Positions 25,090 through 53,729 of a stretch of DNA of 64,000 bases are shown here, in pieces (positions within the stretch are counted from its first letter, which is position 1; every line of letters begins with the position of its first letter). A model generated the notes under the pieces. It was not told the DNA's origin and made no database searches. It saw only the letters and a program-made list of their open reading frames with translations. The translations under genes were made by a program, and so were the position numbers. This DNA is from Escherichia coli (GTDB lineage: Bacteria; Pseudomonadota; Gammaproteobacteria; Enterobacterales; Enterobacteriaceae): the NCBI RefSeq assembly GCF_045037415.1, contig NZ_CP173438.1. One strand, given 5' to 3'.

Positions 25090-26069
25090 TGCGCACAGGG
25101 CTGGTTACTGTAATTTTCCTCGCCTTACTGCTGGTGGGATGCGTGGTATATCCAGGGATTGGTGCCCGATTTATTGCACCACAAACGGTGTTGCAGGCAT
25201 TTCTTCATTTTGATCCGCAAAACTTCGATCACAACGTAATTGTAAGACTCCGTTTGCCGCGTTTAGCGGCAGCATTGCTTACCGGTGCTTCTCTTGGTGT
25301 TGCTGGTGCTTTGTTGCAGGCTGTCATTCGTAACCCATTGGGGGAACCACATATTTTAGGCTTAAATGCCGGAGCCGCTCTTGCTGTCGTTGCCGCCAGT
25401 GCGCTTGGACTGGCCTTTCCGGTTGGACGCCCACTGCTGGCATCTACGGGGGGCGCGTTATTGTTCCTGTTGATATTGCTGCTTTCCTCCGCAGGGCGTT
25501 CAGGGTTAACGCCAATGAAAGTTACTTTATGCGGCGTGGCGCTATCGGCGTTCGTGTCCTCAATAACGGCTGCAATCCTGATTCTTGACGAACAAACACT
25601 GCTGGCGATGCGGACATGGCTAGCAGGTGATTTAGCGGGGCAGGATTGGGCGACGCTGGGTACGTCCGCCTGGTTTTCTCTGGGGGGATTTGTGTTAGCC
25701 CTTTACCTTGCACCCTCCCTTAACATGTTGGCACTGGGCGATCGCATGGCGCAGGGGCTGGGCGTCTCTGTACTCCGCACGCGAACATTCACCCTGCTTG
25801 CGATCGCGTTGCTCTGTGGCGCAGCCGTATCGATTGCTGGCCCCATTGGTTTTGTCGGCCTGCTAGTACCGCAGATTGTCCGGCGTCTGGTATCAGCGGA
25901 TCTGCGCGTTCTGCTCCCTCTTTCAGCTTGTGTCGGCGCGCTTTTGTTATTACTGGCAGATATTATTGCCCGGACGCTTTTCACGCCCCATGAGTTAGCG
26001 ACCGGTGTCATGACGGCGTTAGTTGGTGCGCCTGTTTTTGTCATTATGGCGACGAGGATGTTCAAATGA
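25086..26069 (+). CDS. ABC transporter permease (FecCD family), 327 aa
   Basis: Polytopic hydrophobic protein; start overlaps the ATPase stop (translational coupling). Confidence 0.85.
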   Translation: MMRTGLVTVIFLALLLVGCVVYPGIGARFIAPQTVLQAFLHFDPQNFDHNVIVRLRLPRLAAALLTGASLGVAGALLQAVIRNPLGEPHILGLNAGAALAVVAASALGLAFPVGRPLLASTGGALLFLLILLLSSAGRSGLTPMKVTLCGVALSAFVSSITAAILILDEQTLLAMRTWLAGDLAGQDWATLGTSAWFSLGGFVLALYLAPSLNMLALGDRMAQGLGVSVLRTRTFTLLAIALLCGAAVSIAGPIGFVGLLVPQIVRRLVSADLRVLLPLSACVGALLLLLADIIARTLFTPHELATGVMTALVGAPVFVIMATRMFK

Positions 26070-27115
26070 GTCGGATAATGAACGTCGGGCTACGCCCACT
26101 ACGTGTTGGTAAGTTTTCGACACTGGTGCGCCCTAAAAATCTGCTGTTGCTTGGTGGGCTGTTCCTGCTTGCGGTTGGAATACTGATATTCGGTCTGATG
26201 CAGGGTTCTTTCTCTGTTCCGGCATCGGAAGTAGGACGAGCGTTGTTTGCTCCAGAAAACGTAAGCACAGACGCACGTTATATTGTGCAGGATATTCGCT
26301 TGCCGAGAGTCATCATGGCATTGCTATGCGGGGCCATGTTAGGTATGGCAGGGGCCGCAATGCAATCCATTGCACGTAACGGCCTTGCCGATCCTGGTTT
26401 AATCGGCGTCAAAGAAGGATGTAGCGTGGCTGTGCTGTGGCTGATTTTCCAGTTTCCAATGCTGGGAATGTTCTGGCGTCCAGTGGCTGGTCTTGCTGGT
26501 GGCCTGTTGGTGGCTTTAATCGTGATTTTTTGTGCGCGCGATATTTCCCGCCCGCGATTTGTTCTGATTGGTATTGGTGTTTCCTGGTTTTTCGCCGCCG
26601 GTATCGGTGTATTTATGACCACTGCAGATGTTCGAGATGTACAAACTGCATTGATGTGGTTATCGGGAAGCCTGCATGCAGCTAACTGGATGTTAGTCGG
26701 TATTTCAGCCTGTTGGATGTTGCCAGCCGCTCTTTTATTGCTGTTCACCGCCAGGACTGCGGATATCGCTCTGCTTGGTCATCAGGTTGCAACCGGGTTA
26801 GGGGTGAATAGTTCTCGTCTGGCGTTGTTACGTGTCGCCGCACCCATAATCCTGACAGCCGTCTGCGTTTCGTGTGTTGGTAACATCGGTTTTGTCGGAT
26901 TGATAGCACCCCATATATCACGTTTTATTCTACGTGGCGGGCAGACGACATTACTGCTGGGGAGCGCGGTATCGGGGGCGTTGTTAGTTATTCTGGCGGA
27001 TAGCATTGGTCGTTTGGCTTTTTTGCCTTTGCAACTGCCTGCCGGAATCATTATCTCACTGATTGGTGGACCATTTTTTTTACTACTGCTCTGGCAGCGC
27101 AGGAACAGTTTTTAA
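26066..27115 (+). CDS. ABC transporter permease (FecCD family), 349 aa
   Basis: Second FecCD-type permease; start overlaps the preceding stop. Confidence 0.85.
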   Translation: MSRIMNVGLRPLRVGKFSTLVRPKNLLLLGGLFLLAVGILIFGLMQGSFSVPASEVGRALFAPENVSTDARYIVQDIRLPRVIMALLCGAMLGMAGAAMQSIARNGLADPGLIGVKEGCSVAVLWLIFQFPMLGMFWRPVAGLAGGLLVALIVIFCARDISRPRFVLIGIGVSWFFAAGIGVFMTTADVRDVQTALMWLSGSLHAANWMLVGISACWMLPAALLLLFTARTADIALLGHQVATGLGVNSSRLALLRVAAPIILTAVCVSCVGNIGFVGLIAPHISRFILRGGQTTLLLGSAVSGALLVILADSIGRLAFLPLQLPAGIIISLIGGPFFLLLLWQRRNSF

Positions 27116-27125
27116 CGGGAGTTAT

Positions 27126-28073
27126 ATGCGTTTATTTTTTTCTCTGCTGATACTGTTGTCATTTTTTTCCCGTGCAACAGAACCTGTTCAGGTATTTACT
27201 GATGATTTAGGGCGCAAAGTCACTGTTCCTGCTCATCCAAAGAGAATTGTCTCTTTACACGATCTTGATATCACTATTCCTCTGATTGAGCTCGGTGTAC
27301 CTCCTGTCGCCAGCCACGGGCGAACTCGGCCTGACGGTAGCCATTTCATTCGATCTGGCGCGTTATTGACAGGTGTCGACTTTGATAATTCATCGATCGC
27401 CTTTATTGGTACCGCTGATATTGATATTGAAGCGATTGTGGCGGCAAAGCCTGACTTGATCATCACAGAACCGACCCGTAATACGCCCATTGAACAACTT
27501 GAAAAAATTGCGCCCACGGTGAGCATTGATCATCTCAAAGGGGGCGCGCCAGAAATCTATCGCAAGCTGGCAGAACTTACAGGAACGCAGTCGCAGCTGG
27601 CGATACTTGAACGCCGCTATCAGGCACAAATCAATGCGCTGAAGGCGACGCTGGACAGCCAAAAAATAACGGTATCGGTGATTCAGGCAAACCAGGGAAA
27701 AATTAATGTGATGCATAGCTATCATTCGCTGGGACGGGTATTACGCGATGCTGGTTTTCGTTTTCCGCCGCTGATTGAGAGCATTCCTGAAGGTGGGCGA
27801 ATGGATGTGAGCGCGGAGCGTTTACCTGAACTGGATGCCGATTTTGTTTTTGCAACCTGGCGCGGTGACACCGGTGGTAAACCTCAGGATGAGCTGGCAG
27901 CAATGGAAAAAGTCATGCCGGGATGGTGTCAGTTTCTGACTGCCTGTCGTTCCGGGCGTTATGTGCTGATTTCTCGTGAAGAGGCAATTTCTAACTCCTT
28001 TGCATCTCTGGGGCTGATGGCTGCGCAGATACAATCACAAATTGCAGGGCGACCTCTACCGGAGGCTAAATGA
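27126..28073 (+). CDS. Periplasmic iron-siderophore binding protein (FhuD/FecB-like), about 315 aa
   Basis: ORF 27063..28073; start chosen at the ATG preceded by GGGAG; signal peptide MRLFFSLLILLSFFSRA; class III SBP-like composition. Confidence 0.8.
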   Translation: MRLFFSLLILLSFFSRATEPVQVFTDDLGRKVTVPAHPKRIVSLHDLDITIPLIELGVPPVASHGRTRPDGSHFIRSGALLTGVDFDNSSIAFIGTADIDIEAIVAAKPDLIITEPTRNTPIEQLEKIAPTVSIDHLKGGAPEIYRKLAELTGTQSQLAILERRYQAQINALKATLDSQKITVSVIQANQGKINVMHSYHSLGRVLRDAGFRFPPLIESIPEGGRMDVSAERLPELDADFVFATWRGDTGGKPQDELAAMEKVMPGWCQFLTACRSGRYVLISREEAISNSFASLGLMAAQIQSQIAGRPLPEAK

Positions 28074-28957
28074 TCCAGAAAGATAAAGTGCGGGTTGATA
28101 TTTTTGGTGAGCGTTTTCGCACTCGCGCGAGTCAGTTAACGCCTGGGTTAAGAGTTGTCGCCAGCTACATTAATGAGCATCGTGAAGTGGTACTCGAGCA
28201 AACGGCGATGGAAATTGCGGCCACGTTGAACACTTCCGATGCCACAGTTATCAGGGCTATACAGGCCCTGGGGTTTGCCGGGCTGCGTGATCTGAAACGC
28301 ACTCTGGAACAGTGGCTTGGTCCAGCCCTTAGTTCCAGCGAAAAGATGTCTACGACGGTGAGTAACTTGACGAGCGATGTTAACACCGCAATCGACTTTG
28401 TTCTTGAAGGGCATTTGTATACCTGTAATGTCCTGTCAGAGCCTGAAAACCGCCACGCGCTTGCGCAAGCTGTAGCGTTGTTGGTGCAGGCACGGCAAGT
28501 CGCAATTTTTGGCATTGGCGCTTCGGGTATTCTGGCGGACTATACCGCACGACTATTCAACCGCATAGGTTTGCCTGCCACGGCACTAAACCGTACGGGT
28601 ATTGGCCTTGCCGAGCAACTGATCGCGCTTCAACGTGGCGATGTTCTGATCATGATGGCGCAAAAATCTGCGCACCGGGAAGGGCTGACAACGCTTCGTG
28701 AGGCGAGGCGGCTGGGGATCCCTGTTATTTTGCTGACAAACGCGCTGGATTCACGTTTTAGCAAAGACGCCAGTATCGTGATTCATGTTCCGCGCGGGGA
28801 TGAAAAAGGGAAAACGCCGCTACATGGTACGGTATTGTTGTGTCTGGAAATGATTGTCTGGTCGGTAGCTTCCGCAGTGCCGCAGCGTGCGGTTAAAACC
28901 ATTAAGCGAATTAACGATTTCCATCGAGGACTGAAAACGGGAAGAAAGAATGGCTAA
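28070..28957 (+). CDS. RpiR/MurR-family transcriptional regulator (HTH plus SIS domain; fit-locus FitR-like), 295 aa
   Basis: N-terminal HTH (..EIAATLNTSDATVIRAIQALGF..) and C-terminal SIS-type sugar-phosphate binding region; start overlaps the binding-protein stop. Confidence 0.8.
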   Translation: MIQKDKVRVDIFGERFRTRASQLTPGLRVVASYINEHREVVLEQTAMEIAATLNTSDATVIRAIQALGFAGLRDLKRTLEQWLGPALSSSEKMSTTVSNLTSDVNTAIDFVLEGHLYTCNVLSEPENRHALAQAVALLVQARQVAIFGIGASGILADYTARLFNRIGLPATALNRTGIGLAEQLIALQRGDVLIMMAQKSAHREGLTTLREARRLGIPVILLTNALDSRFSKDASIVIHVPRGDEKGKTPLHGTVLLCLEMIVWSVASAVPQRAVKTIKRINDFHRGLKTGRKNG

Positions 28958-30178: not shown

Positions 30179-30658
30179 ATGTCAAATATGATATACTTAT
30201 CAATTAAAGGGAAAATACAAGGTTTGATCTCTGAGGGTTGTGGTTCGTATGCATCTATTGGTAATAAATATCAAATAAATCATGTGGATGAAATTTTTGT
30301 TTTACAGTTCGACCATTCTTTAAGTCGAGAGTATAATGTAGTGCATCACCCCATAAAATTTTACAAGCCAATAGATAAATCCTCCCCTTTATTAAATGCC
30401 GCTCTTTCTGAAAATGAAGAGTTATCAGCTGTATTTAATTTTTATAGAATTAATTCTGGCGGTTGTATTGAAAGGTTTTACACAATTGAATTGCAAGGAG
30501 CACATTTATCGAATATTCTGACATGTTATCCACACTCAATTACACATGCGGGTAATCAGCCGGAAGAGGTCATTGTTCTTAATTATAAAAATATAACATG
30601 GAAGCACCATATCGCGAGTACGGAATCATATAGTTGTTGGGAAGAAAGGATTTTTTAA
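30179..30658 (+). CDS. hcp: Orphan Hcp-family protein (type VI secretion tube/cargo-carrier family), 159 aa
   Basis: Product MSNMIYLSIKGKIQG...HHPIKFYKPIDKSSPLLNAAL...FNFYRINSGG...VIVLNYKNITWKHH... follows the conserved Hcp pattern; AT-rich; no other T6SS core genes in the window. Confidence 0.75.
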   Translation: MSNMIYLSIKGKIQGLISEGCGSYASIGNKYQINHVDEIFVLQFDHSLSREYNVVHHPIKFYKPIDKSSPLLNAALSENEELSAVFNFYRINSGGCIERFYTIELQGAHLSNILTCYPHSITHAGNQPEEVIVLNYKNITWKHHIASTESYSCWEERIF

Positions 30659-30660
30659 AT

Positions 30661-31371
30661 ATGAAAAGCGATCTCACTATAAAAAATAGATATTGTACAA
30701 TTCCACAAGCGAAGTTCCGTAAATGGGATGAAATGGACGTTTTACTCTGGAAGTTAGGAAAAAATGATTCGCGTCGCCGTTCAGGAGTATATTATTTAAA
30801 TGCTTATAAAGATGCATATGTACAATATAATAGAGACAAAATAATTAAATATGCATACGCCGCTGGAATTCGTCCAGAGTTACTGGGCGGCGTGGCCTGG
30901 ATTGAGTCAGGAGGTATGCCTGAAAATTATAAGTTTCAGATATATGAAACAAAAAGAATGATCGGATTGTTAGATATGCCTGAAAATAAAACATCATTTG
31001 GCTCAATGGGTATACAAATACGAACCGCAGCGATTACTCTAGGTCTAGACCCTTCAGAATTAACTACCAGAAATCAGTTAGAGTTAGCGACATGCCTAAT
31101 GGAGGATGATTTTACCTTTCAAATTGCTGCTACTTATTTAAGAGATCTTGTTCTTTTTGATTATCCCTCTTCGGCAACACTGTATATGACGAATGAGCAG
31201 TATATTATGGCTGGTATTAGATATAATCGTGGTGTTGAACGAGATTTGGGTTTTTTTATTTGTTTAATTAATAATTTGCCTGCACGTGATACAGATGATT
31301 ATAAATTCATCTCTTATGGTATGAGGTTGTTAGAGATTAGAGAACATATCAAAAAATTGATTAATGAGTAA
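30661..31371 (+). CDS. Putative Hcp-associated effector with lytic-transglycosylase (SLT / lysozyme-like) motifs, 236 aa, no signal peptide
   Basis: ATG preceded by AAGGA, 2 nt after the hcp stop. Ordered motifs: E82-S83 (WIESGG), G117-I-Q-I120 with TAA (SMGIQIRTAA), A157-T-Y-L160 (QIAATYLRDL), Y188-N-R-G191 (GIRYNRG). AT-rich. Confidence 0.6.
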   Translation: MKSDLTIKNRYCTIPQAKFRKWDEMDVLLWKLGKNDSRRRSGVYYLNAYKDAYVQYNRDKIIKYAYAAGIRPELLGGVAWIESGGMPENYKFQIYETKRMIGLLDMPENKTSFGSMGIQIRTAAITLGLDPSELTTRNQLELATCLMEDDFTFQIAATYLRDLVLFDYPSSATLYMTNEQYIMAGIRYNRGVERDLGFFICLINNLPARDTDDYKFISYGMRLLEIREHIKKLINE

Positions 31372-41411: not shown

Positions 41412-41422
41412 TGGACCAATTC

Positions 41423-41448
41423 AATGCCCCACAGAGTGGTGGGGCATT
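41423..41448. terminator. Hairpin (AATGCCCCAC-AGAGTG-GTGGGGCATT) between ftsP (+) and the TRAP transporter operon (-)
   Basis: 10-bp perfect inverted repeat between convergent genes. Confidence 0.45.
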
Positions 41449-41481
41449 GAAAATTACTCAGTATGCAGTCTTCATTGTGTA

Positions 41482-42786
41482 TCAGGTCGAAAATAATCCT
41501 GGCAGCATCAGACTAAGCTGCGGGAAATAACAAATAATTGCCATTACTACAAACAATGCCAGAAACATCGGCAGTAATGGTTTTATTGCCCTGTCGATAC
41601 TGACCTTACCAATGCTGCATCCCACAAACAGAATGGTGCCGACAGGTGGTGTGCAAAGGCCAATGGTTAAGTTGAAAACCATAATGATGCCGAAGTGAAT
41701 CGGATCAATCCCCAGATGCTGGGCGATCGGCAGGAAAATAGGTGTAAATATCAGGATCGCCGGCGTGATATCCATAAAGGTACCAACGATCAACAGAATG
41801 ATATTGATAATAAACAGAATGACCCATTTGTTATCCGAAACGCGGGTAATCAGTTCGTTGATCAACTCAGGAACATCAGCATTCGTCATGGCCCATGACA
41901 TCCCCATCGAGCAGCCTACCAGTAACAGAACAATTGAACTGGTTACTACCGAATCTAACAGAATATCATTGAGCTTCTTAAGAGTGATTTCCCGGTAAAT
42001 CATCGCCAGGGCTAAACTATAAATTACCGCAATTGCCGATGCTTCTGTAGGCGTAAATACCCCCGCGATAATACCGCCAATAATGATAAAAATAAGCATC
42101 AGGCTAGGAATTGATTCGCGGAATACCTGTAAAAACTGACGGTAATTAATGCGCTCGGCCACCGGATAATGGTGACGTCGGGCATAAAGTGCAGCTACAA
42201 ACATTAAGGCAACAGCGGTGAGGATGCCCGGCAGATATCCAGCTAAGAACAACGCAGCGACAGAAGTCCCGCCACTGGCAAGGGAATAAACAATCAACAC
42301 ATTGCTCGGTGGGATCATCAGGCCAATGGGGGCAGAGGCAATATTAACCGCTGCTGAAAACGCCGGATCATATCCCTCTTTTTCTTGCAGTGGTGACATA
42401 ATCCCACCTACCGCGGCGGCTGACGCAACGGCTGAACCTGAAATCGCACCAAACAGTGTATTCGCGAGGATATTACAATGAGCCAGTGAGCCAGGAAGAC
42501 GCCCAACTAATGCTTGCGCCAGGTTAACCAGTCGTCTGGCTATACCACCGGTATTCATAATGTTTCCGGCTAACACGAAGAAGGGAATGGCTAATAGCGT
42601 AAAGCCATCCAGCCCCACAGTCATCTTTTGCGAAATCACAGAAATGGCGGCATCGGGTGGTAAGGCAGTAATAATAGATAACAGCGAAGAAAGACCAATC
42701 GCAAAAGTAATTGGCACACCTATTGCCAGCATGACGGCAAAACTGCCAAATAAAATTAAGACGGGGTAGATATATTCAAAGTCCAT
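41482..42786 (-). CDS. TRAP transporter large permease subunit (DctM family), about 434 aa
   Basis: ORF 41482..42828; start chosen at the ATG preceded by GAGGGA; highly hydrophobic polytopic product. Confidence 0.8.
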   Translation of the reverse strand: MDFEYIYPVLILFGSFAVMLAIGVPITFAIGLSSLLSIITALPPDAAISVISQKMTVGLDGFTLLAIPFFVLAGNIMNTGGIARRLVNLAQALVGRLPGSLAHCNILANTLFGAISGSAVASAAAVGGIMSPLQEKEGYDPAFSAAVNIASAPIGLMIPPSNVLIVYSLASGGTSVAALFLAGYLPGILTAVALMFVAALYARRHHYPVAERINYRQFLQVFRESIPSLMLIFIIIGGIIAGVFTPTEASAIAVIYSLALAMIYREITLKKLNDILLDSVVTSSIVLLLVGCSMGMSWAMTNADVPELINELITRVSDNKWVILFIINIILLIVGTFMDITPAILIFTPIFLPIAQHLGIDPIHFGIIMVFNLTIGLCTPPVGTILFVGCSIGKVSIDRAIKPLLPMFLALFVVMAIICYFPQLSLMLPGLFST

Positions 42787-42796
42787 ATTTCCCTCG

Positions 42797-43279
42797 TTAA
42801 TGAAAATTCCGTTTACGATAGTTGTCAATAATATTCATTACTGAATACCAGACCAGAATAAGCCCACTGACAGGCATAACCCAATATACTTTATCCATTG
42901 GCCATTTTAATACTGGAGAGATTTGTCCAACATGTTGTGCTTTTTCAACAACAATATTCCCGCCATAGATCATGAAAATAACCGCAAAGACCGTAATAAT
43001 AATTTGGATAAAACTGTCAAGCGTCAGAACAGATGCAGCCGGAAGTTTTTGAGCCAACAAATCAATGGCCAGATGTTTTTTTAACCCCGCAGTATATACA
43101 CCGCCAAGTAAAATCATCCACATAAATAAAATCTGGGTGAACTCATCAAGCACAGTGCTGGGAGCGTTAAAAATAAAACGTGCAATAACTTGCCAGGTTA
43201 CGCAGAACACCATAATGGCGAGAATAATGCAGCAACATCCGGCAAGGATCTTATTAAGAATATGAGTGAGTGTTCGCAT
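42797..43279 (-). CDS. TRAP transporter small permease subunit (DctQ family), 160 aa
   Basis: 160-aa four-TM protein between DctP-like and DctM-like genes. Confidence 0.75.
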   Translation of the reverse strand: MRTLTHILNKILAGCCCIILAIMVFCVTWQVIARFIFNAPSTVLDEFTQILFMWMILLGGVYTAGLKKHLAIDLLAQKLPAASVLTLDSFIQIIITVFAVIFMIYGGNIVVEKAQHVGQISPVLKWPMDKVYWVMPVSGLILVWYSVMNIIDNYRKRNFH

Positions 43280-43320
43280 AAGTCTTCCATGAAAAGGCAG
43301 GAATTACCTGCCCATTAGGG

Positions 43321-44304
43321 TTACATACTTTCTACTAGCTCAAGGTTTTTGGCTGATTGTGCATCTTTCGCCTTGAATTCATCGTATAACGGTTTGACGC
43401 GTTCTTTGAAAGCGGATTTATCAACATCAACAACTGTTGCGTTCATCCCTTTCATTTTGTCGTAGGCTTCTTTTTCAGCCGCAGGCCAGATGACGTCCTT
43501 CATCTGCATCATTGACTCATCGGCTGCTTTTAATAATGCCGTGCGCTCTTTATCACCAAGTTTATTTAACACGTCGGTGCTGATAATTAACACATCAGGT
43601 ACCATGGTGTGTTCATCACGTGAATAGACTTTTGCGACTTCGGCGTGACGCATATCGGCATAGACAACGGTATTGTTCTCTCCGCCATCAACCACTCCTT
43701 GCTGAAGTGCGGTGTAGAGTTCGCCTTGCGCCATCGGGGTAGCGACACCACCGAGTGCTTTCATCATTGCAATGGCGCTGGGGCTTTGTTGAACCCTGAT
43801 TTTCATTCCCGCTAAATCTTCAGGTTTTGTAATCGGTTTATTGGAATAAAAACTTCTCGCACCGCCGTCATAGTACGTAATACCAACAAAACCTTTGCTT
43901 TCTGATGAATTAAGTATTTTTTTACCTAAATCACTTTGCAGAACACGATAATAGTGATCACGGTCGCGGAATAAGAACGGCAGACTGAAAAGGCTGTAAT
44001 CCGGAGCAAATGATTCTAGTGATGCAGCATTAACCTTAACCATCTGTAATGCACCGGAGTTCATTAATTCCAGTGATTCACGCTCATTACCTAATGTCGC
44101 ATTTGGGTAAATGCGAATAACTAATTCACCATTAGAATACTCTTTGGTTTTATCCGCTAAATAGCTTAATGCTTTATGGACAGCATGGCTTTTATCCTGA
44201 TTATGACTCAGTTTTAATGTTGTTTTTGCCAGTGTGGTATTAGATATTAATAAACAACTGGTTAACAGCATAAGCGATGCCGTCAGAGGACGAAGTGCTT
44301 TCAT
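43321..44304 (-). CDS. TRAP transporter periplasmic solute-binding protein (DctP family), 327 aa
   Basis: Signal peptide plus DctP-family composition; upstream of the dctQ/dctM-like genes. Confidence 0.85.
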   Translation of the reverse strand: MKALRPLTASLMLLTSCLLISNTTLAKTTLKLSHNQDKSHAVHKALSYLADKTKEYSNGELVIRIYPNATLGNERESLELMNSGALQMVKVNAASLESFAPDYSLFSLPFLFRDRDHYYRVLQSDLGKKILNSSESKGFVGITYYDGGARSFYSNKPITKPEDLAGMKIRVQQSPSAIAMMKALGGVATPMAQGELYTALQQGVVDGGENNTVVYADMRHAEVAKVYSRDEHTMVPDVLIISTDVLNKLGDKERTALLKAADESMMQMKDVIWPAAEKEAYDKMKGMNATVVDVDKSAFKERVKPLYDEFKAKDAQSAKNLELVESM

Positions 44305-44376
44305 ATCCTGCTCCTGGTTAATATAACAGAAACGATAAATACAGCGCTTTTCTATCGTTATAATAAAAAATAGTGA

Positions 44377-45387
44377 TTAATTCTCTGCCAGATAATGGAA
44401 TATTCCTGCCGGAACCGGAATACCTTCCTGTTGGCATTTTTCTTTGTAGTGCATTTGCGGATCGTTCGGCGCTAACACTTTTTCGACACCAGGAGCCGGT
44501 TTAACGGCATGCAGCTCCGTGACCATTTTCGCCATAGTTTTTGCAAAAACAGGATTGCCGAGCTTTTTCGGATCGATGGCAATAACCAAACTTGCCAGCT
44601 TACGCATCTTGTCATAATCACCATACATGCGAACAATATGGTTGCCAAAATTCGCATTCATCAGCACGCCAGTCAGTGCATCAATAGCCAGTGCAATGCC
44701 TGAACCTTTGTGTTGGCCGAAAGGTAGCAGGTTTTCAATCTTATACGGATCAGTGGTGCCATAACCGTTTTTATCTATCGCCAGTCCTTCACCAATATGT
44801 TTTCCGGTTTCCTTTGCATGAAGTATTTTGCCGAAAGCCGTGGCACTGGTCGCCATATCAACAATCATCGGATGGCTGTTTTCCACCGGGAAACCAAAGG
44901 CGATGGGGTTAGTTCCCAAAAAGCGCTCGGCGCCGCCATGGGGAGCCACACAGGTATCGGTTTGCGTCATTACGATAGCAACCAACCCTTTGTTGGTGAT
45001 CATCTCTGCAAAATAAGATAACGCACCACAGTGAGACGTGTTTTTAACGCTAACAAAACCGAGACCCTCTTGCTGGGCCAGTTTAATAGCGTGCTCAGTG
45101 GCGCTAATTAATGCGGAATGCCCCATTCCGTCGTCAGAGTCGAGAATGGCCACTGACGGTGAAATTTGCTCAATGCTAAACTGCGGGGCTTTATTTAACC
45201 CTCCGGCAGCAAGGCGGGTGCAATAATGTTCGACACGCATAACACCATGTGAATGCACACCGGTAATATCGGCATGTACTAAAACATCTGTCACCTGTTG
45301 TGTGGTGTCGGTATCCAGCCCGGCGGTATGTAATTTGTGGTGCACCAGTGATTTTAAATTTTCTTCACTGACATAAACAGTTGTCAT
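44377..45387 (-). CDS. Ldh_2-family NAD(P)H oxidoreductase (malate/L-lactate dehydrogenase-2 family; 2,3-diketo-L-gulonate reductase / YiaK-like), 336 aa
   Basis: Family recognised from overall sequence pattern (..GVHSHGV.., ..GTNPIAFG..); in operon with the TRAP genes. Confidence 0.7.
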   Translation of the reverse strand: MTTVYVSEENLKSLVHHKLHTAGLDTDTTQQVTDVLVHADITGVHSHGVMRVEHYCTRLAAGGLNKAPQFSIEQISPSVAILDSDDGMGHSALISATEHAIKLAQQEGLGFVSVKNTSHCGALSYFAEMITNKGLVAIVMTQTDTCVAPHGGAERFLGTNPIAFGFPVENSHPMIVDMATSATAFGKILHAKETGKHIGEGLAIDKNGYGTTDPYKIENLLPFGQHKGSGIALAIDALTGVLMNANFGNHIVRMYGDYDKMRKLASLVIAIDPKKLGNPVFAKTMAKMVTELHAVKPAPGVEKVLAPNDPQMHYKEKCQQEGIPVPAGIFHYLAEN

Positions 45388-45397
45388 ATTTGTTCCC

Positions 45398-46414
45398 TTA
45401 AAAAGTGATCACACCCTTGACCATATTTTTATTTTCTACAACGTTACGCTGGTAATCTTCGCCAACACTAAAGAAATTGAACGCCTGGTTTTTCATTAAA
45501 TTTTCGTGAATTTTATTGCTGCGCATCAGTTCAATCACCAACGCAAAATCTTCCCGTGTGGCATTGCGGCTGCTGAGTAACGTTGTCTCTTTTTTATGGA
45601 AGGTCGGATCGTCAATAACAAGTTCACCAATGTACAAACCGATGAAAACAATTTTGCCGCCATGACGAATAAGATTGACATCATGACTCATTGAAGCTTT
45701 ATTTCCCGTCGCATCCAGTACTACGCAAGCCAGTTCGCCTCCAAAGGCCTCACGAAGCGCGGCAATAAAATCTTCCTGTGTGGGATTGAAGGCATTAATC
45801 GCCAGATGATCCACAACGTGCTGGCGACGTTGACAGTCAATATCAGCAACAACAACATGTGCCCCTTTAGCCCGGGCGATGGCTGCGGTAGCCAGACCGA
45901 TTGGCCCAGCGCCAATCACCAGTACGTTTTGTTCAGCCTTGATCTCTGCCCGACGAACGGCATGTGCACCAATGGCGAAACATTCAACCAATGCTCCGGC
46001 ACTGTCGCTGACCTCGTCAGGGAGAGGCACAAGGTTGTCTTCACGTACCGCAAGGTACTCACTAAAACCCCCATCCTGATGCACGCCATACAGCGAAACA
46101 CGTTCGCAGCAGTTCGTTTTCTCTTCCCGACAGGCTGCGCACTCGCCACACGGAATGCATGGGATGACGGAATAGCGCTGGCCTGATTGTGCTGTTTGGC
46201 ACTGGCTGCCTCGCGAAACCGCTTCGGCGCATATTTCATGACCTAATACACGTGGGTAGCTAAAAAAAGGCTGTCTGCCGGCAAAAGCGTGAATATCAGT
46301 ACCACAAATACCCACAGCTTTTATTTTTAACAGCACTTCATTATCTGCTGGTGTGGGAATATCCTTTTCCACATATTCCATAACGCCAGGCTGCTGACAA
46401 ATTAATGTTTTCAT
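45398..46414 (-). CDS. Zinc-dependent medium-chain alcohol/polyol dehydrogenase (IdnD / LgoD / sorbitol DH-like), 338 aa
   Basis: Catalytic Zn motif GHE (..VLGHEICAEAV..), structural Zn cysteines (CIPCGECAACREEKTNCC), Rossmann GAGPIG. Confidence 0.8.
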   Translation of the reverse strand: MKTLICQQPGVMEYVEKDIPTPADNEVLLKIKAVGICGTDIHAFAGRQPFFSYPRVLGHEICAEAVSRGSQCQTAQSGQRYSVIPCIPCGECAACREEKTNCCERVSLYGVHQDGGFSEYLAVREDNLVPLPDEVSDSAGALVECFAIGAHAVRRAEIKAEQNVLVIGAGPIGLATAAIARAKGAHVVVADIDCQRRQHVVDHLAINAFNPTQEDFIAALREAFGGELACVVLDATGNKASMSHDVNLIRHGGKIVFIGLYIGELVIDDPTFHKKETTLLSSRNATREDFALVIELMRSNKIHENLMKNQAFNFFSVGEDYQRNVVENKNMVKGVITF

Positions 46415-47883
46415 TTCTGCTCATCCGATAATAATTGGCTGATGGTGGCCTTGATGCCTTTGTTTTTTATATTTGCAAAGGCGATTTTTATTTCATTTAT
46501 AAATGGCTGATGGTTGCTTAAATCACCAAATATGGCGCTAAGGTGCAGTAATGCGAGCGCCTGTTGCCATGCGTCTTGTTGTTCCTTTATTAGCGCCTGA
46601 AATTGTTCATTCATTGGATCCGCGACAGACTGGCTTTTCTCAACAGCTTCAATGACATAATGCAACCAACCAGCAACGAGCAGTGACAGAACAGCATTGT
46701 TTTGTTTTTGCTGATGCAATTTCAGCCAGGGCGTCAGCGCACGCTGGGGAAGCTTTTGTGAACCGTCCATAGCGATTTGCCCGGTACGGTGTGCAACATT
46801 ACGGTTGCTAAAGCGTTCAATTAACAGGTCGGCGTATTCCTGGGCGTCGATATTTAAGTCTGGATTAAGTGTTCGGGCTTGTTCATTAATCATCAGTTGG
46901 CGGGTAATGGAACGAAAATCAGCGTCTTCCATGCATTGCCAGATAAATTCATAGCCAGCCAGTGAGCCGTTATAGGCCAGAAATGAATGGCCACCGTTTA
47001 ACATGCGTAACTTCATCTCTTCATAAGGCTGAACATTGCTGACAAACATCGCGCCTGCTTTATCCCATTGTGGTCGCCCATGCACAAAATTATCTTCAAT
47101 CACCCACTGACGAAATGATTCGCAGACGATCCCGCAGGGATCGGCATAACCGGTTTTAGTTTCCAGTAAGGCGAATTGCGATTCGGTCATTGCCGGAACA
47201 ATGCGATCGACCATCGTGCCTGGAAATGAGACATTTTCTTCGATCCACTGAGCCAGGGGCTGGTCCAGTTGTCGGGCAAAACCGAGAACGGCATTTCGCG
47301 TCAGATGCCCATTGTCTGGCAAGTTGTCGCAGGAGAGCACGCTAAAAGCGGCGAGCCCTGCCGCTTTACGTTGTTGCAAAGCACAGACGATCAAGCCAAT
47401 AGCCGACTGAGGCGCATCCGGGTTTTGTAGATCGTGTTTGATTAATCCATTGGTGAGATCAAGCGATCGCGTTTGCGAATCGAGACAATAGCCTTTCTCG
47501 GTGATGGTTAATGAAACGATTTTTACCTGAGGTTCAGTCAATTTCTGGATTGCTGCGGCAATGCCATCCACGGGGGTATGAATACCGCCAGTTACCGAAC
47601 GCACAAGGCGTGAGGTAGATTGCGATGCAGATGTTTCCACAACCGAAAACAGCCCATTTTGCGCATTTAAGTTTTCGATCAGTTGAGCATCACCAAACAG
47701 GTTGATCTCAAAGATCCCCCAGTGGGTGTCAGAAAGCTGATTAGTGAGATCCGTGTAGACAGCCTGGTGTCCGCGATGAAAAGCGCCAAAACCAATATGG
47801 ACAATATCTGCCTGTAACCCGCCCCGAGGCCAGGTGGTTACCTGATCATAGTGGGCGGCATCGATACTTTCGTTCCCTGACAT
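46411..47883 (-). CDS. Mannitol-dehydrogenase-family oxidoreductase (fructuronate / tagaturonate reductase, UxuB / UxaB-like), about 490 aa
   Basis: ORF 46411..47919; start chosen at the ATG preceded by AGGAG; N-terminal Rossmann (VHIGFGAFHRGHQ) typical of long-chain mannitol DH family; 4-bp overlap with the next gene. Confidence 0.8.
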   Translation of the reverse strand: MSGNESIDAAHYDQVTTWPRGGLQADIVHIGFGAFHRGHQAVYTDLTNQLSDTHWGIFEINLFGDAQLIENLNAQNGLFSVVETSASQSTSRLVRSVTGGIHTPVDGIAAAIQKLTEPQVKIVSLTITEKGYCLDSQTRSLDLTNGLIKHDLQNPDAPQSAIGLIVCALQQRKAAGLAAFSVLSCDNLPDNGHLTRNAVLGFARQLDQPLAQWIEENVSFPGTMVDRIVPAMTESQFALLETKTGYADPCGIVCESFRQWVIEDNFVHGRPQWDKAGAMFVSNVQPYEEMKLRMLNGGHSFLAYNGSLAGYEFIWQCMEDADFRSITRQLMINEQARTLNPDLNIDAQEYADLLIERFSNRNVAHRTGQIAMDGSQKLPQRALTPWLKLHQQKQNNAVLSLLVAGWLHYVIEAVEKSQSVADPMNEQFQALIKEQQDAWQQALALLHLSAIFGDLSNHQPFINEIKIAFANIKNKGIKATISQLLSDEQK

Positions 47884-48205
47884 TATGCTCTTACTCCTGG
47901 TGGCTTGTGTGTATACCAATTTACATAATTCATTAGACCAAAAACAGAGAGATGCATCACGCTTGCAGAGAAAGGTAAAAGTACGAAACAGAACAACAAG
48001 GCGTTATTTATATCTGTATCAATGAGTTATATGAATAAAATGAAAGGAAAGTTTTTTAGAGGTCAGTTTTTAGGATAATTGCCGCTAATCTAAGATATCT
48101 GATGATAGTCGATTTATTAGACCAATTAAAAAGAGAGCGTGTACCAGTGGAGGGCGGAAGGCAGAGCCGGCGTTATTTTTTCCGCCAGCTCTGGACTAAT
48201 GAAGG

Positions 48206-48955
48206 TTAACGAGCGAAGAAAAAGTCATCAAAATCGCTGATGGAAGCGTCTTGTTTGAAGATTTTGATCAGTTCATTTTTGCTGTTTTCCAGATGTCTCC
48301 AGGACGCTTCCCTGGCGAGCTCTGAATCTTTCTGTTGCAGAGCCAGGAAAATAGCCCGGTGATCTTCCAGCCATTGCAGACGCAAATGCTTTTCATGCAG
48401 GTACTTGTAGTTAAGTTTCTTCCAGCGGGGGTTTTCTGTACGAACTGCCCGCCATAATTCAGCAGCTTGTTTGATGAGTACCCGATTTTGCGTCGCTTCG
48501 GCAATAATGCTATGAAATCGGTGATCCAGGTCTTCAAATTTATCACTTTCCGCAGCGATGGCTTTTTCCTGTAATCCAATGATTTTCTTCAACTCTTGTA
48601 ACTCGTTAAAGCTGATCTGGCTGGCAGCAAAACCGGTAATATTGCTCTCAATTACCTGACGTGCCTGTAACAGTTCAAACGGGCCAATTTCTGAATAGGG
48701 CATTAATGATTTCTGGTTGAGCTTATCGGTGGAGTCGACAAAGAAAATCCCTGACCCTTGCTTCACATTCAATACGCCTTTCAGTTCCAGCATAATGATG
48801 GCTTCACGAATGGTAGTTCGGCTGGTATTAAACCGCTCGCTCAGTTCACGTTCTGAAGGTAAGCGTTCTCCGGCCTTAAATACGCCTGAATACAGCAGCT
48901 CTTCAATCTGTAGACCAATATCGTAATAGCGGCGCTTTGTAATAACCTGTTCCAT
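48206..48955 (-). CDS. GntR/FadR-family transcriptional regulator, 249 aa
   Basis: N-terminal GntR HTH (..GERLPSERELSERFNTSRTTIREAIIMLELKGVL..) plus FCD-type C-terminal domain; upstream of the TRAP/oxidoreductase operon. Confidence 0.8.
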   Translation of the reverse strand: MEQVITKRRYYDIGLQIEELLYSGVFKAGERLPSERELSERFNTSRTTIREAIIMLELKGVLNVKQGSGIFFVDSTDKLNQKSLMPYSEIGPFELLQARQVIESNITGFAASQISFNELQELKKIIGLQEKAIAAESDKFEDLDHRFHSIIAEATQNRVLIKQAAELWRAVRTENPRWKKLNYKYLHEKHLRLQWLEDHRAIFLALQQKDSELAREASWRHLENSKNELIKIFKQDASISDFDDFFFAR

Positions 48956-49206
48956 ACCTTGCCTTACTGTGGGTGTCCTCGGATAGCCGATCGACGTGCA
49001 ATATGATTTGAACGTTGCTGAGCGGCATAAATAGTAGCGGCAGTTGCCACGATACCGCCAGCCTTAAATGTGCTTGCCCAAGTCGGGCAGTGAAAAACCT
49101 CACCAGGGTATTTCGCCACCGTTCATCAACATCACTTCATTTCCGCGCGTGATACAGCGTATAATCCCCGGCCTTTGATTATTTTTTTACCATTTCTGGA
49201 AGCAAA

Positions 49207-52901: not shown

Positions 52902-53729
52902 TTAGCCGCCGAACTGGTCAGGATCGGGACCGAGACGCTTGCCCTGATCGAGTTTTGCAATTTCGCCAAGTTCGTCTTTGTCGAGACGGAAATCCCAGAC
53001 ATCAAAGTTTTCGACAATGCGTGAAGGTGTGACCGATTTTGGGATCACCACCAGGCCGCTATCCAGATGCCAGCGGATAACAATCTGCGCAGGGGTTTTG
53101 CCGTATTTATCTGCCAGATCGCGAATGACTTTCTGATCGAAAACGCCTTTCCCTCCTTGCGCTAATGGGCTCCAGGATTCGGTCTGGATTTTGTGTGTCG
53201 CGTTCCAGGCATGTAGCTGGCGTTGTTGCATCAGCGGGTGAAGTTCGATCTGGTTTATCACAGGCGTCACGCCAGTTTCATCAATCAGGCGTTGCAGGTG
53301 ATGGATCTGGAAGTTGCACACGCCGATGCTTTTGATTAATCCCTCTTTTTGCAATTCGATCATGCCTTTCCATGCTTTGACATAATGGTCGATAGCGGGA
53401 ACGGGCCAGTGCATTAAATAGAGGTCGATATAATCAAGCTGGAGTTTTTTCAGGCTGTCGAGCAGGGCTTCGCGGGGGCGCTTGTGGTCGTCGTTCCACA
53501 GCTTAGTGGTGATGAACAGTTCTTCTCTGTTGACTGAGGCATTTTTCAGGGCTTTGCCGACACCTTCTTCGTTCTTGTAGGCCGCGGCGGTATCAATCGA
53601 GCGATAACCCACTTCTAACGCTTTTTGAATGGCGGTGATTACTTCCTCATTACTTGCTTGCCAGACGCCCAGTCCCAGCTGGGGCATGACATTGCCATCC
53701 TGTAGCTTAATAACGGTTGGATTAGCCAT
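52902..53729 (-). CDS. dkgA: 2,5-diketo-D-gluconate reductase A / methylglyoxal reductase DkgA (aldo-keto reductase), 275 aa
   Basis: AKR family pattern (MANPTVIKLQDGNVMPQLGLGVWQ...IDTAAAY...); downstream of yqhD. Confidence 0.9.
   Translation of the reverse strand: MANPTVIKLQDGNVMPQLGLGVWQASNEEVITAIQKALEVGYRSIDTAAAYKNEEGVGKALKNASVNREELFITTKLWNDDHKRPREALLDSLKKLQLDYIDLYLMHWPVPAIDHYVKAWKGMIELQKEGLIKSIGVCNFQIHHLQRLIDETGVTPVINQIELHPLMQQRQLHAWNATHKIQTESWSPLAQGGKGVFDQKVIRDLADKYGKTPAQIVIRWHLDSGLVVIPKSVTPSRIVENFDVWDFRLDKDELGEIAKLDQGKRLGPDPDQFGG

Follow-up and report, generated by a model that had tools for sequence, protein, structure and literature searches.

The DNA segment between ftsP and ygiQ carries an operon that couples a putative high-affinity importer of the glucuronate type to three predicted dehydrogenases, and it looks like a feeder into ordinary sugar-acid catabolism. 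The window, i.e., the whole stretch of 64,000 nucleotides that was analysed, is from Escherichia coli (contig NZ_CP173438.1). In the preferred reading, to which we give about an even chance, the segment would encode a feeder operon, controlled by CRP and a repressor, for sugar acids with the L-gulonate skeleton, with its output passing to UxuA, KdgK, and Eda.

An accessory segment between ftsP and ygiQ

ORF calls and the RefSeq annotation place seven intact, co-directional genes between ftsP and ygiQ (Table 1). These are the six genes and the GntR/FadR-type regulator described in the earlier note. The six genes are tightly packed, with intergenic gaps of -4, 10, 72, 41, and 10 nt, where the 4-nt overlap joins the mannitol-dehydrogenase-family (MDH) gene and the start of the Zn-dependent dehydrogenase (Zn-ADH) gene. 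The mechanical ORFs of dctM and the MDH-family gene extend to 42828 and 47919, respectively. The family matches of the operon proteins to profile models were far above chance (E-values of 1e-57 to 1e-154).

Table 1. Features of the ftsP-ygiQ segment (positions in the window)
Feature	Position	Strand	Remarks
Whole accessory segment	41412-49159	-	7,748 bp; from the ftsP stop codon to the ygiQ promoter region; junctions from comparison with empty-site locus L002
Perfect 10-bp hairpin, 6-nt loop	41423-41448	between convergent ftsP and dctM	AATGCCCCAC / GTGGGGCATT; read from sequence
dctM, TRAP large permease	41482-42786	-	434 aa (RefSeq start); TIGR00786, 514 bits (cut-off 268)
dctQ, TRAP small permease	42797-43279	-	160 aa; PF04290 in orthologs; weak YiaM match
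dctP, periplasmic solute-binding protein	43321-44304	-	327 aa, signal peptide; TRAP_S1 and dctP models
Ldh_2-family (malate/L-lactate dehydrogenase type 2) oxidoreductase	44377-45387	-	336 aa; ortholog of Salmonella STM3081
Zn-dependent medium-chain dehydrogenase (Zn-ADH)	45398-46414	-	338 aa; 56% identity to K-12 LgoD
MDH-family reductase	46411-47883	-	490 aa (RefSeq start); UxuB/YdfI-like
Promoter-operator block (putative)	47908-47961	-	CRP-like site and two TTGGT boxes
Two TTGGT boxes (putative operators)	47930-47941 and 47908-47919	-	22 bp start to start
CRP-like site (putative), CGTGA-N6-TCTCT	47946-47961	-	motif conservation
Distal TTGGT box	48112-48136	-	AATTGGTCTAATAAAT; 184 bp upstream of the proximal box
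GntR/FadR-family (FCD) regulator	48206-48955	-	249 aa; UxuR/ExuR-like

In comparison with the empty site, the left edge of the segment directly abuts the ftsP stop codon, and the segment takes the place of approximately 62 bp of the 110-bp spacer between ftsP and ygiQ. The GC content of the segment is 0.453, versus 0.534 and 0.510 for the flanks. Among 5426 complete E. coli genomes, 1201 (about a fifth) carry the segment. The expectation that K-12 lacks it was borne out: ftsP and ygiQ are adjacent, separated by the 110-bp spacer, in 22 of 22 sampled segment-free rows, including laboratory K-12/B-type strains. It is doubtful that the segment is an "island" if that word implies that a mobile element inserted recently: no flanking direct or inverted repeats, integrase, or tRNA were found at the segment, E. 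albertii, E. whittamii, Klebsiella spallanzanii, and Pseudocitrobacter have the same cluster at this position, and comparison with the clusters of the latter two shows saturation at synonymous sites. The hairpin at the left edge stands where the empty site has the ftsP terminator hairpin and is likely a bidirectional terminator, a function that we infer; it was not flagged by the consensus terminator scan.

In 2014, Wichelecki et al. reportedly described a "cryptic" L-gulonate pathway in CFT073, and the present segment could likewise be cryptic or in the course of decay and serve no function today, which we consider very improbable. The segment is missing from approximately 78% of the complete E. 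coli genomes, the linkage of transporter and dehydrogenases is lost in Salmonella, and we found no published E. coli phenotype, the sole treatment found being in silico (PMC12928451). However, all seven ORFs are intact with dN/dS values of 0.016-0.144, and the promoter-operator block has been retained in different genera. In addition, expression of stm3169, the Salmonella ortholog of dctP, rises strongly in macrophages, and bacteria in which this gene is disrupted survive less well inside cells (PMC3022708, as related in PMC7660916).

The TRAP transporter and its probable ligand

DctP is 83.5% identical to Salmonella STM3169, which lies at the same ygiQ/ftsP site; DctQ is 70% identical to its Salmonella counterpart and DctM is 88-89% identical to the protein at the STM3171 site. 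Two methods gave a KD of 0.17-0.25 uM for the binding of D-glucuronate by STM3169, and all seven reported contact residues (N35, Q36, E74, R150, R170, N210, and D237) are kept in DctP. No signal was seen for STM3169 with D-galacturonate or D-gluconate, and D-galactonate gave a thermal shift only; the panel of six compounds did not include L-gulonate, L-iduronate, keto-acids, or unsaturated uronates (PMC7660916). Among the closest solved relatives of DctP are the glucuronate binders 4N91, 4MHF, and 4N15. The scores against hexuronate-binding structures were 201-232 bits, with 232 bits for the best solved relative, compared to 142 bits for 4O8M and 103 bits for the L-gulonate binder 4PBQ. By these scores, DctP is grouped with the hexuronate binders and not with the L-gulonate- or L-galactonate-binding types, contrary to the ligand proposed in the earlier note. 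The statement that the substrate is not determinable from sequence holds only in part, since DctP has an ortholog of known ligand at the same locus. The next-nearest DctPs (54-57% identity) are encoded in Vibrio and Serratia loci together with uxaC, uxuB, uxuA, kdgK, and a glucuronidase-like GH2 gene.

Import of an L-aldonate (L-gulonate, L-galactonate, or L-idonate), with Zn-ADH and the MDH-family reductase epimerising C5 to yield D-mannonate, D-altronate, or D-gluconate, is an unlikely alternative in view of these scores and of the retained D-glucuronate contacts. It is in essence the reading of the earlier note. It would leave the Ldh_2 protein without a role, and in 846 genomes a different TRAP system adjoins lgoR-lgoD, with a binding protein that matches 4OVT and 4O8M; this linkage may speak indirectly against L-galactonate as the role of the segment. 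Conversely, L-aldonates are missing from the STM3169 panel, the two enzymes resemble LgoD and UxuB and have RspB and YdfI of CFT073 as their closest solved relatives, and H. influenzae provides a precedent of TRAP, GulD, and UxuB, in which the conversion of L-gulonate via D-fructuronate to D-mannonate is experimental (PMC5788505).

The three dehydrogenases

The operon encodes no dehydratase, kinase, or aldolase and must therefore feed core pathways, in agreement with its description as an accessory sugar-acid feeder. For Zn-ADH, the closest solved structure is 4ILK (RspB of CFT073), all NCBIfam equivalog models remained under cut-off, and the predicted reaction is oxidation of a six-carbon sugar acid at its L-configured C5 hydroxyl. 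The MDH-family reductase is 49% identical to UxuB, reaches 510 bits with the fructuronate reductase subfamily model (cut-off 603), and has YdfI (4IM7, 472 bits) as its closest solved structure; it is predicted to be a 5-keto (fructuronate-type) reductase. The inversion of C5 from L to D proposed earlier for this pair is a fair inference from these identities. For the Ldh_2 protein, the top model matches are AllD, and the closest solved structure is also AllD (4H8A, 263 bits). It is 78% identical to its Salmonella ortholog, which is known only by annotation (PMC9016547, PMC8526972), and 65-79% identical to homologs of Vibrio, Agarivorans, and Marinomonas. The equivalog models for UxuB, RspB, IdnD, AllD, YiaK, and UxuR were all under the curated cut-offs for the operon proteins, so that the relatives after which the models are named may act on other substrates.

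Read literally, the database names describe a C4-dicarboxylate DctPQM, a malate/lactate/ureidoglycolate dehydrogenase, and generic polyol dehydrogenases, a combination that we find hardly credible as the function. The source names are "C4-dicarboxylate ABC transporter substrate-binding protein" and "ureidoglycolate dehydrogenase", and the in silico study (PMC12928451) handled the system as dicarboxylate uptake. However, the ligand bound by the Salmonella DctP is glucuronate (PMC7660916), the two AllD models scored below their cut-offs (318.8 vs 496.2 bits and 340.8 vs 356 bits), and no allantoin or dicarboxylate genes were found in any of the cassette or transporter contexts examined. In addition, deletion of STM3081 had no effect on the selection of the malate-growth (Mte+) duplication, and duplication of STM3081 did not confer malate growth (PMC9016547).

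Regulator and putative operators

The regulator is 38% identical to UxuR, with 193 bits for the UxuR model and 185 bits for the ExuR model, both under their cut-offs, and shares 78% identity with its Salmonella counterpart beside STM3083. It is presumed to repress its own operon. The operator block is kept upstream of the MDH-family gene in E. coli, K. spallanzanii, Pseudocitrobacter, and Salmonella (STM3083), and is also found upstream of Salmonella dctP (STM3169) (alignment A1). The distal TTGGT box was found twice independently, as a direct repeat (D2; 25 nt, 80% identity) and in a motif scan, and distal boxes are likewise present in K. spallanzanii, in Pseudocitrobacter, and upstream of Salmonella dctP.

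In Salmonella, the dehydrogenase cassette lies at STM3081-3084, unlinked from the stm3169 transporter site. Since the CRP-like site and the paired TTGGT boxes precede both, the transporter and the cassette appear to form one regulon even when unlinked.

Cassette contexts in other bacteria

The three dehydrogenases form a conserved cassette in many gammaproteobacteria. The accessory feeder of the earlier note is partly supported, and its oxidoreductases are not an ad hoc set. The cassette adjoins a 3,6-anhydro-L-galactonate cycloisomerase (684 bits vs PDB 5XD7) in 8 of 11 sampled contexts: K. quasipneumoniae, E. coli RM9088, Enterobacillus, V. agarivorans, V. nigripulchritudo, Agarivorans (within an agarase locus), Polycladidibacter, and a Rhodobacteraceae genome. 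Genes for 2-keto-3-deoxygluconate (KDG) kinase and aldolase, KduI, or DUF386 are often nearby. The regulators of these clusters are 79-80% identical to that of the segment and their operator architecture is identical, and this linkage points to a 2-keto-3-deoxy substrate over hexonates.

The cassette could accordingly turn 2-keto-3-deoxy-L-galactonate (L-KDGal), or the 4-deoxy-5-keto-uronates DKI/DKII, into KDG by C5 inversion, with the TRAP system of E. coli supplying a compound of this kind, such as unsaturated glucuronate or DKI from glycosaminoglycans or pectin, instead of plain glucuronate; taken jointly, these proposals are rather unlikely. Besides the cycloisomerase linkage with its orthologous regulators and operators, they draw on stereochemical reasoning that L-KDGal is the C5 epimer of KDG (pathway in PMC5943477) and on a 2024 review according to which it is not yet settled what becomes of L-KDGal in bacteria (PMC11219438). 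On the other hand, the cycloisomerase occurs in only 1 of 5426 E. coli genomes and is absent from the segment, and the TRAP systems of the cycloisomerase-type clusters belong to another subfamily (approximately 30-32% identity, three of the seven contact residues changed). Furthermore, two enzymes suffice for a C5 inversion, whereas the cassette has three.

Proposed mechanism and comparison with known systems

In the preferred reading, the operon would scavenge a periplasmic hexuronate-type acid with sub-micromolar affinity and direct it by NAD(P)-dependent redox steps into the D-mannonate/KDG pathway. D-glucuronate, the ligand shown for the Salmonella ortholog, would be bound by DctP and taken up by DctQM, driven by an ion gradient. 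By analogy with LgoD, Zn-ADH may then oxidise an L-gulonate-type acid at its L-configured C5 hydroxyl, yielding D-fructuronate as the 5-keto acid, and the UxuB-like reductase would reduce this ketone to the D configuration, giving D-mannonate. GulD and UxuB of H. influenzae provide an experimental example of these two steps (PMC5788505). On family chemistry, Ldh_2 might reduce the C2 keto group of an acid with this skeleton, with 2-keto-L-gulonate to L-gulonate as the candidate reaction. Core UxaC, UxuA, KdgK, and Eda would complete the pathway, with the regulator repressing the operon via the paired TTGGT boxes and CRP activating it.

The 6-oxo, 5-oxo, and 2-oxo forms of L-gulonate are D-glucuronate, D-fructuronate, and 2-keto-L-gulonate, respectively; the operon would thus funnel all three to D-mannonate. 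Against the preferred reading, E. coli already has ExuT, UxaC, UxuB, and UxuA, so that glucuronate requires none of the three extra enzymes, no enzyme of the operon turns D-glucuronate into L-gulonate, and most of the sampled cassette contexts are cycloisomerase-linked.

Among the systems of K-12, there are likenesses to L-galactonate 5-dehydrogenase, LgoD, with which the Zn-ADH shares 56% identity, and to the uxuA promoter, where TTGGTnnACCA boxes resemble the TTGGT boxes of the segment operon.

Organization of the segment between ftsP and ygiQ

Between the ftsP stop codon at 41411 and the ygiQ start at 49207, we found seven intact genes on the minus strand, which encode a TRAP transporter (dctPQM), three dehydrogenases and a GntR/FCD regulator, confirming the locus that the earlier note had outlined. 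Alignment of the junctions with a locus in which ftsP and ygiQ are adjacent (L002) placed the extra DNA at 41412-49159 (7,748 bp). The spacer between the two genes is 110 bp at the empty site, and ~62 bp of it, with the terminator hairpin of ftsP, are replaced by the segment. The segment has a perfect hairpin of its own (see the table). Its proteins were assigned unambiguously at the superfamily level (E-values 1e-57 to 1e-154). The GC content of the segment is 0.453, versus 0.51-0.53 for the flanks and 0.488 for the whole window. An Rfam search of the 320-bp leader gave no structured-RNA match at E <= 0.1, and a scan for consensus promoters and terminators was uninformative, as the sites were no commoner than in shuffled sequence.

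Features of the ftsP-ygiQ segment (window coordinates)
Feature	Position	Strand	Remark
dctM	41482-42786	-	
dctQ	42797-43279	-	
dctP	43321-44304	-	protein WP_000645961.1
Ldh_2-family oxidoreductase	44377-45387	-	
Zn-dependent dehydrogenase (Zn-ADH)	45398-46414	-	
Mannitol-dehydrogenase-family protein (MDH)	46411-47883	-	
GntR/FCD regulator	48206-48955	-	
Hairpin of the segment	41423-41448		perfect, 10 bp
CRP-like site	47946-47961		~30-80 bp upstream of the MDH gene, with boxes
Two proximal TTGGT boxes	47930-47941, 47908-47919		22 bp apart, start to start
Distal TTGGT box	48114-48125		184 bp upstream of proximal box

Several other blocks were seen in the window. The block from ygiN to parE (~21765-28957) encodes a MurR/RpiR regulator, a FecCD-type iron-siderophore ABC transporter and a TonB-dependent receptor, and corresponds to the accessory block GR 22 in PMC12928451. 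From ygiZ to mdaB (~30179-31371), an orphan Hcp-family type VI secretion gene and a hypothetical gene are present. Two more blocks lie at ~9971-13139 and 2438-7410; one of them, from ygiC to ygiD, encodes an aryl-sulfate sulfotransferase with DsbL and DsbI, and the other is a four-gene chaperone-usher fimbrial operon.

Distribution and age of the segment

The full segment was found in 1201 of 5426 complete E. coli genomes. The arrangement given for K-12 in the earlier note, with ftsP and ygiQ adjacent, was seen in every segment-negative E. coli genome sampled. The segment is listed as 'GR 21 ygiQ..ftsP' in PMC12928451, being complete in seven B2 extraintestinal/adherent-invasive strains compared with BEN2908; the annotation there is in silico only, and the transporter is treated as a dicarboxylate system. 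Outside E. coli, all seven genes are also carried at this location by E. albertii, E. whittamii, Klebsiella spallanzanii and Pseudocitrobacter cyperus, and K. huaxiensis has a DctP 84-86% identical to that of the segment (a protein match alone).

The cluster has a low GC content in every enteric host examined, and for the segment this is the sole sign of foreign origin. No integrase, transposase, tRNA/att site or flanking repeats were found at the segment, which thus lacks the features of a mobile genomic island, and no plasmid copies of it were found. The dN/dS values against E. whittamii were 0.016-0.144 across all seven genes, indicating purifying selection. In addition, the synonymous sites are saturated in comparison with Klebsiella and Pseudocitrobacter. 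Because of this saturation and the missing hallmarks of mobility, the recent-island reading was dropped, and we read the segment as an old acquisition that has been patchily retained.

The transporter and its predicted ligand

DctP, DctQ and DctM are encoded together, as expected for a DctP-type TRAP transporter, and the scores exceed the cut-offs for TIGR00786 (514 bits, cut-off 268) and TIGR00787 (220 bits, cut-off 175); PF04290 is present in the DctQ orthologs. At the ygiQ-ftsP site of Salmonella, dctPQM correspond to STM3169-3171 and no further accessory genes are present. E. coli DctP is 83.5% identical to the 327-aa Salmonella protein encoded at the STM3169 site, which exceeds the ~60% identity level of isofunctional clusters of TRAP binding proteins (PMC5788505).

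For refolded STM3169, the KD of D-glucuronate binding was 0.17 uM when measured by fluorescence and 0.25 uM when measured by thermophoresis (Herman et al., 2020; PMC7660916). Within a panel of just six compounds, no signal was obtained with D-galacturonate or D-gluconate, and D-galactonate gave a thermal shift only (PMC7660916). The contact residues of STM3169 are N35, Q36, E74, R150, R170, N210 and D237, with R170 and R150 as the arginine positions for the ligand carboxylate (PMC7660916). All seven are identical in E. coli DctP, in which R170 and R150 are positioned as in STM3169. These comparisons suggest that E. coli DctP would bind D-glucuronate with high affinity, as shown for its Salmonella ortholog.

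The solved structures closest to DctP include the glucuronate binders 4N91, 4MHF and 4N15 (201-202 bits; top match 232 bits). The next-nearest DctP proteins (54-57% identity) are from Vibrio and Serratia loci that carry uxaC, uxuB, uxuA and kdgK together with a UxuR-like regulator and a glucuronidase-like GH2 enzyme; the DctP of the Vibrio uxu locus keeps six of the seven contact residues, with E74 replaced by Q.

Two other ligand assignments were rejected. The database annotation as a C4-dicarboxylate transporter conflicts with D-glucuronate binding by the ortholog STM3169 (PMC7660916). A binder of L-gulonate of the GulP type, represented by 4PBQ, is disfavored by a score of 103 bits (rank 57 among the 60 matches listed), against 232 bits for the best structure of the hexuronate group. 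The earlier note's view of the segment as a feeder module for sugar acids is partly supported and can be sharpened: DctP is the ortholog of the D-glucuronate binder STM3169 and is not of the L-gulonate-binder type.

The gene stm3169 is a reported Salmonella virulence factor, the genomic context of which was said to give no functional clue (PMC7660916). Related transporters were also seen elsewhere. A second locus of E. coli SCPM-O-B-8794 (L009) encodes another TRAP system, with a DctP 56% identical to that of the segment, which adjoins genes for an SDR, an enoyl-CoA hydratase, a FadX-like CoA transferase and a fumarate-reductase-like flavoprotein. Outside the enteric bacteria, the nearest DctP (65% identity) is that of Gammaproteobacteria bacterium AwWohl (L007), which is placed after a second TRAP system at a locus that also encodes a D-2-hydroxyacid dehydrogenase, a Zn-ADH and a KduD-like SDR, and represents a further combination of a transporter with three dehydrogenases, from different enzyme families.

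The three dehydrogenases

The equivalog models for AllD, YiaK, sulfolactate dehydrogenase, UxuB, RspB and IdnD all scored under their cut-offs. For the Ldh_2-family protein, the nearest solved relative is AllD (263 bits). Both AllD models fell short (TIGR03175, 318.8 bits, cut-off 496.2; NF011599, 340.8 bits, cut-off 356) and none of 11 cassette contexts contained allantoin genes, which led us to reject the annotation as AllD. The annotation as malate dehydrogenase was rejected as well; duplication of STM3081, the Salmonella ortholog, did not confer growth on malate (PMC9016547). The YiaK model also scored below its cut-off (NF009750, 126 bits, cut-off 316), and PDB 1NXU gave 81 bits. To our knowledge, all characterised Ldh_2-family members act on the carbon next to the carboxylate.

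For the Zn-ADH, 56% identity was found to LgoD, the L-galactonate 5-dehydrogenase of K-12, and the RspB model gave 199 bits (cut-off 376). The MDH is 49% identical to UxuB, with a score for NCBIfam NF011611 of 510 bits, below the cut-off of 603; a UxuB-like reaction type is plausible despite this score. The nearest solved relatives of the Zn-ADH and the MDH are RspB and YdfI of CFT073, respectively, for which a cryptic L-gulonate pathway was reportedly described by Wichelecki in 2014. In B. subtilis, a yjmC-yjmD pair lies within the hexuronate operon.

The dehydrogenase cassette in other bacteria

A protein search with the Ldh_2 protein revealed that the gene order MDH, Zn-ADH, Ldh_2 is conserved as a cassette. 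In Salmonella, it is located between speA and speB as STM3081-3084, with a regulator 78% identical to that of the segment and a DUF386 gene; the MDH, Zn-ADH and Ldh_2 enzymes are 64%, 73% and 78% identical, respectively, to those of the segment. STM3081 is known solely as a 'putative L-lactate/malate dehydrogenase' (PMC9016547, PMC8526972). A Rhodobacteraceae genome has the Zn-ADH and Ldh_2 genes only, and this pair is thus taken as the conserved core.

An enolase-superfamily gene was found within 10 kb of the cassette in eight of the 11 distinct contexts sampled. The protein of K. quasipneumoniae matches the 3,6-anhydro-L-galactonate cycloisomerase 5XD7 with 684 bits; identities of 64-79% to it were found for three others. 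Common companions of the cassette are KDG (2-keto-3-deoxygluconate) kinase and aldolase, aldehyde dehydrogenase, KduI and DUF386, and the transporter beside such cassettes is of the MFS or a different TRAP type. In Agarivorans, the cassette lies inside an agarase locus, and the V. agarivorans cassette proteins are 60-76% identical to those of the segment.

Among the 5426 E. coli genomes, the cycloisomerase is present in one (RM9088), in a second island type at gyrB-yidB; since only this one genome carries it, the cassette of the E. coli segment is not fed by a cycloisomerase. The clusters of RM9088 (L093) and K. quasipneumoniae (L090) each comprise a GntR regulator, the cycloisomerase, the three-dehydrogenase cassette and an MFS transporter. 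An enzyme of an agar-sugar pathway in enteric bacteria was unexpected.

In the cassette loci of Salmonella (L086, 10047-10541) and Enterobacillus (L099, 10051-10545) and in two others (L092 and L098), the gene after Ldh_2 is one for a DUF386 protein (YhcH/YiaL family). This arrangement suggests that its product may be a helper, perhaps in ring opening or anomerisation, for Ldh_2 enzymes acting on keto-sugar acids that cyclise. The E. coli segment has no DUF386 gene.

L-KDGal (2-keto-3-deoxy-L-galactonate) shares its C4 and C5 configuration with 2-keto-L-gulonate, and it differs from KDG as the epimer at C5. According to a 2024 review, its fate in bacteria is unresolved (PMC11219438); for Pseudoalteromonas atlantica, a different three-gene route has been reported (PMC5943477).

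Proposed regulation of the transporter and the cassette

The proximal and distal TTGGT boxes were recovered independently by a repeat finder as a 25-nt repeat. In an alignment of promoter blocks (A1), the same block recurs in five places: four of these precede the cassette (in K. spallanzanii, Pseudocitrobacter, E. coli and, at STM3083, Salmonella), and the fifth precedes Salmonella dctP (STM3169). The enteric clusters of the cycloisomerase type share this promoter architecture and encode regulators with 79-80% identity to that of the segment. The cassette promoters of Vibrio and Marinomonas contain perfect TTGGTnnACCAA palindromes; the operators of the enteric clusters have the TTGGT half-site in common with TTGGTnnACCAA, and their second half is degenerate. 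TTGGTnnACCA boxes are also present at the K-12 uxuA promoter. The regulator scored 193 and 185 bits against the UxuR and ExuR models, respectively (cut-offs 442 and 396), with 38% identity to UxuR. From these features, we infer that one UxuR/ExuR-like repressor, together with CRP, would govern the transporter and the cassette, even where the two are unlinked.

Proposed pathway

From family chemistry and the paralogs, the Zn-ADH would oxidise an L-configured C5 hydroxyl and the UxuB-like enzyme would reduce the 5-ketone so formed, giving the D configuration; the Ldh_2 enzyme, from family chemistry, would act on the carbon adjoining the carboxylate. L-gulonate has D-glucuronate as its 6-oxo form, D-fructuronate as its 5-oxo form and 2-keto-L-gulonate as its 2-oxo form; on this basis, we view the operon as a putative funnel that would lead L-gulonate-family acids to D-mannonate and on to the core enzymes UxuA, KdgK and Eda. 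The logic of C5 oxidation and reduction is that of the H. influenzae L-gulonate pathway (PMC5788505).

This funnel model has weak points. Glucuronate itself requires none of the three dehydrogenases, no enzyme of the operon makes L-gulonate from glucuronate, and the association with the cycloisomerase points to the 3-deoxy analogue L-KDGal as a candidate substrate. A wider reading, which we consider possible but rather unlikely, is that the trio is a widespread redox cassette for L-gulo/L-galacto 2-keto acids, acting by C2 reduction and then C5 inversion. The cassette would provide the missing link from L-KDGal to KDG in agar degraders and some enterics, and in pathogenic E. coli and Salmonella it would have been re-coupled, via one shared regulator, to the virulence-associated STM3169-type transporter, for a host-derived uronate-family compound other than plain glucuronate.

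The core-genome gene dkgA (2,5-didehydrogluconate reductase; 52902-53729, minus strand) lies 3.7 kb from the segment, and its product, 2-keto-L-gulonate, is a candidate substrate of the Ldh_2 enzyme. This proximity may well be a coincidence, because an aldo-keto reductase gene is found close to ygiQ in Salmonella as well.

Significance

The operon had been annotated and listed once in the literature, and an ortholog of its transporter has been characterised. The present analysis adds the tie between an STM3169-type transporter and an STM3081-3084-type cassette, which is indicated by gene joining in E. coli and by a putative common operator in Salmonella. Also new are the finding that the cassette forms a widespread unit, of uncharacterised function, and the correction of misleading annotations: the database names C4-dicarboxylate transporter and ureidoglycolate/malate dehydrogenase have already spread into the literature.

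The E. coli arrangement and the common operator give stm3169 its context, namely a regulator and three dehydrogenases (STM3081-3084) that probably act together with it. As the segment occurs in B2 extraintestinal pathogenic and adherent-invasive strains (PMC12928451), it may bear on nutrient use in urine, tissue and macrophages. In addition, the cassette is common to agar-utilisation loci, in which the step after L-KDGal is unresolved (PMC11219438), and both questions could be addressed by the same assays of these enzymes.

Comparison with known systems

The GulPQM-GulD-UxuB-UxuA-KdgK-KdgA system of H. influenzae resembles the segment in combining a TRAP transporter, a Zn-ADH, a mannonate oxidoreductase and a UxuR-type regulator, and in inverting C5 via D-fructuronate (Calhoun et al., 2018; PMC5788505), as proposed here. 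However, GulP belongs to another subfamily (4PBQ, 103 bits), and the H. influenzae cluster lacks an Ldh_2 gene and has its own dehydratase, kinase and aldolase.

The K-12 units lgoR-lgoT-lgoD and uxuAB-uxuR resemble the segment in putative operators of the TTGGT type and in related proteins (Zn-ADH 56% identical to LgoD, MDH 49% to UxuB, regulator 38% to UxuR); the MDH and the regulator are probably paralogs and not orthologs of UxuB and UxuR, and the Zn-ADH may likewise be a paralog of LgoD. In contrast to the TRAP transporter of the segment, LgoT is an MFS transporter, and neither K-12 unit has an Ldh_2 gene. K-12 lgoT is missing in at least 846 of the 5426 E. coli genomes, in which lgoR-lgoD are kept at their own locus as a divergent allele (~85% DNA identity). 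In BH100, the one lgoT-less genome inspected (L096; NZ_CP024650.2, 4975330-4982686), a different TRAP system and a Na+/H+ antiporter are in the place of lgoT, and the binding protein matches PDB 4OVT (492 bits) and 4O8M (275 bits). The mutual exclusion of lgoT and a TRAP system reported for the E. coli pangenome (PMC10769857) does not concern the segment, because that TRAP system lies beside lgoR-lgoD and its binding protein is 27% identical to DctP of the segment; it is probably the L-galactonate importer of lgoT-less strains.

[quoted passage not shown] For two of the three steps, the enzyme families differ: they are a D-2-hydroxyacid dehydrogenase and an SDR in K-12, whereas the segment has an Ldh_2 and a mannitol-dehydrogenase-family enzyme, and the end product is D-gluconate in K-12, whereas D-mannonate is predicted for the segment.

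E. coli yiaK-S likewise combines an Ldh_2 enzyme (YiaK) and a TRAP transporter (YiaMNO) for a keto-acid with the L-gulonate skeleton, 2,3-diketo-L-gulonate, and its DUF386 gene yiaL follows yiaK, much as DUF386 accompanies the cassette in Salmonella, Enterobacillus and the alphaproteobacterial Polycladidibacter and Rhodobacteraceae genomes. Nevertheless, the YiaK, YiaM and YiaN models gave 126, 32 and 288 bits against cut-offs of 316, 260 and 800, and the segment lacks kinase, decarboxylase and epimerase genes.

The agarolytic 3,6-anhydro-L-galactose clusters of the Vibrio sp. EJY3 type have the same cassette beside a cycloisomerase, KDG kinase and aldolase, whereas the segment has neither a cycloisomerase nor an aldehyde dehydrogenase gene and encodes a glucuronate-type transporter.

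A close counterpart in transport is STM3169-STM3171 of Salmonella Typhimurium, which shares the ygiQ-ftsP site, the contact residues, an upstream block with a CRP-like site and TTGGT boxes, and DctP, DctQ and DctM proteins 83.5%, 70% and 88% identical to those of E. coli. In Salmonella, dctPQM stand alone at this site, and the regulator and dehydrogenase genes are located at speA-speB with an added DUF386 gene, whereas all seven genes form one unit in E. coli.
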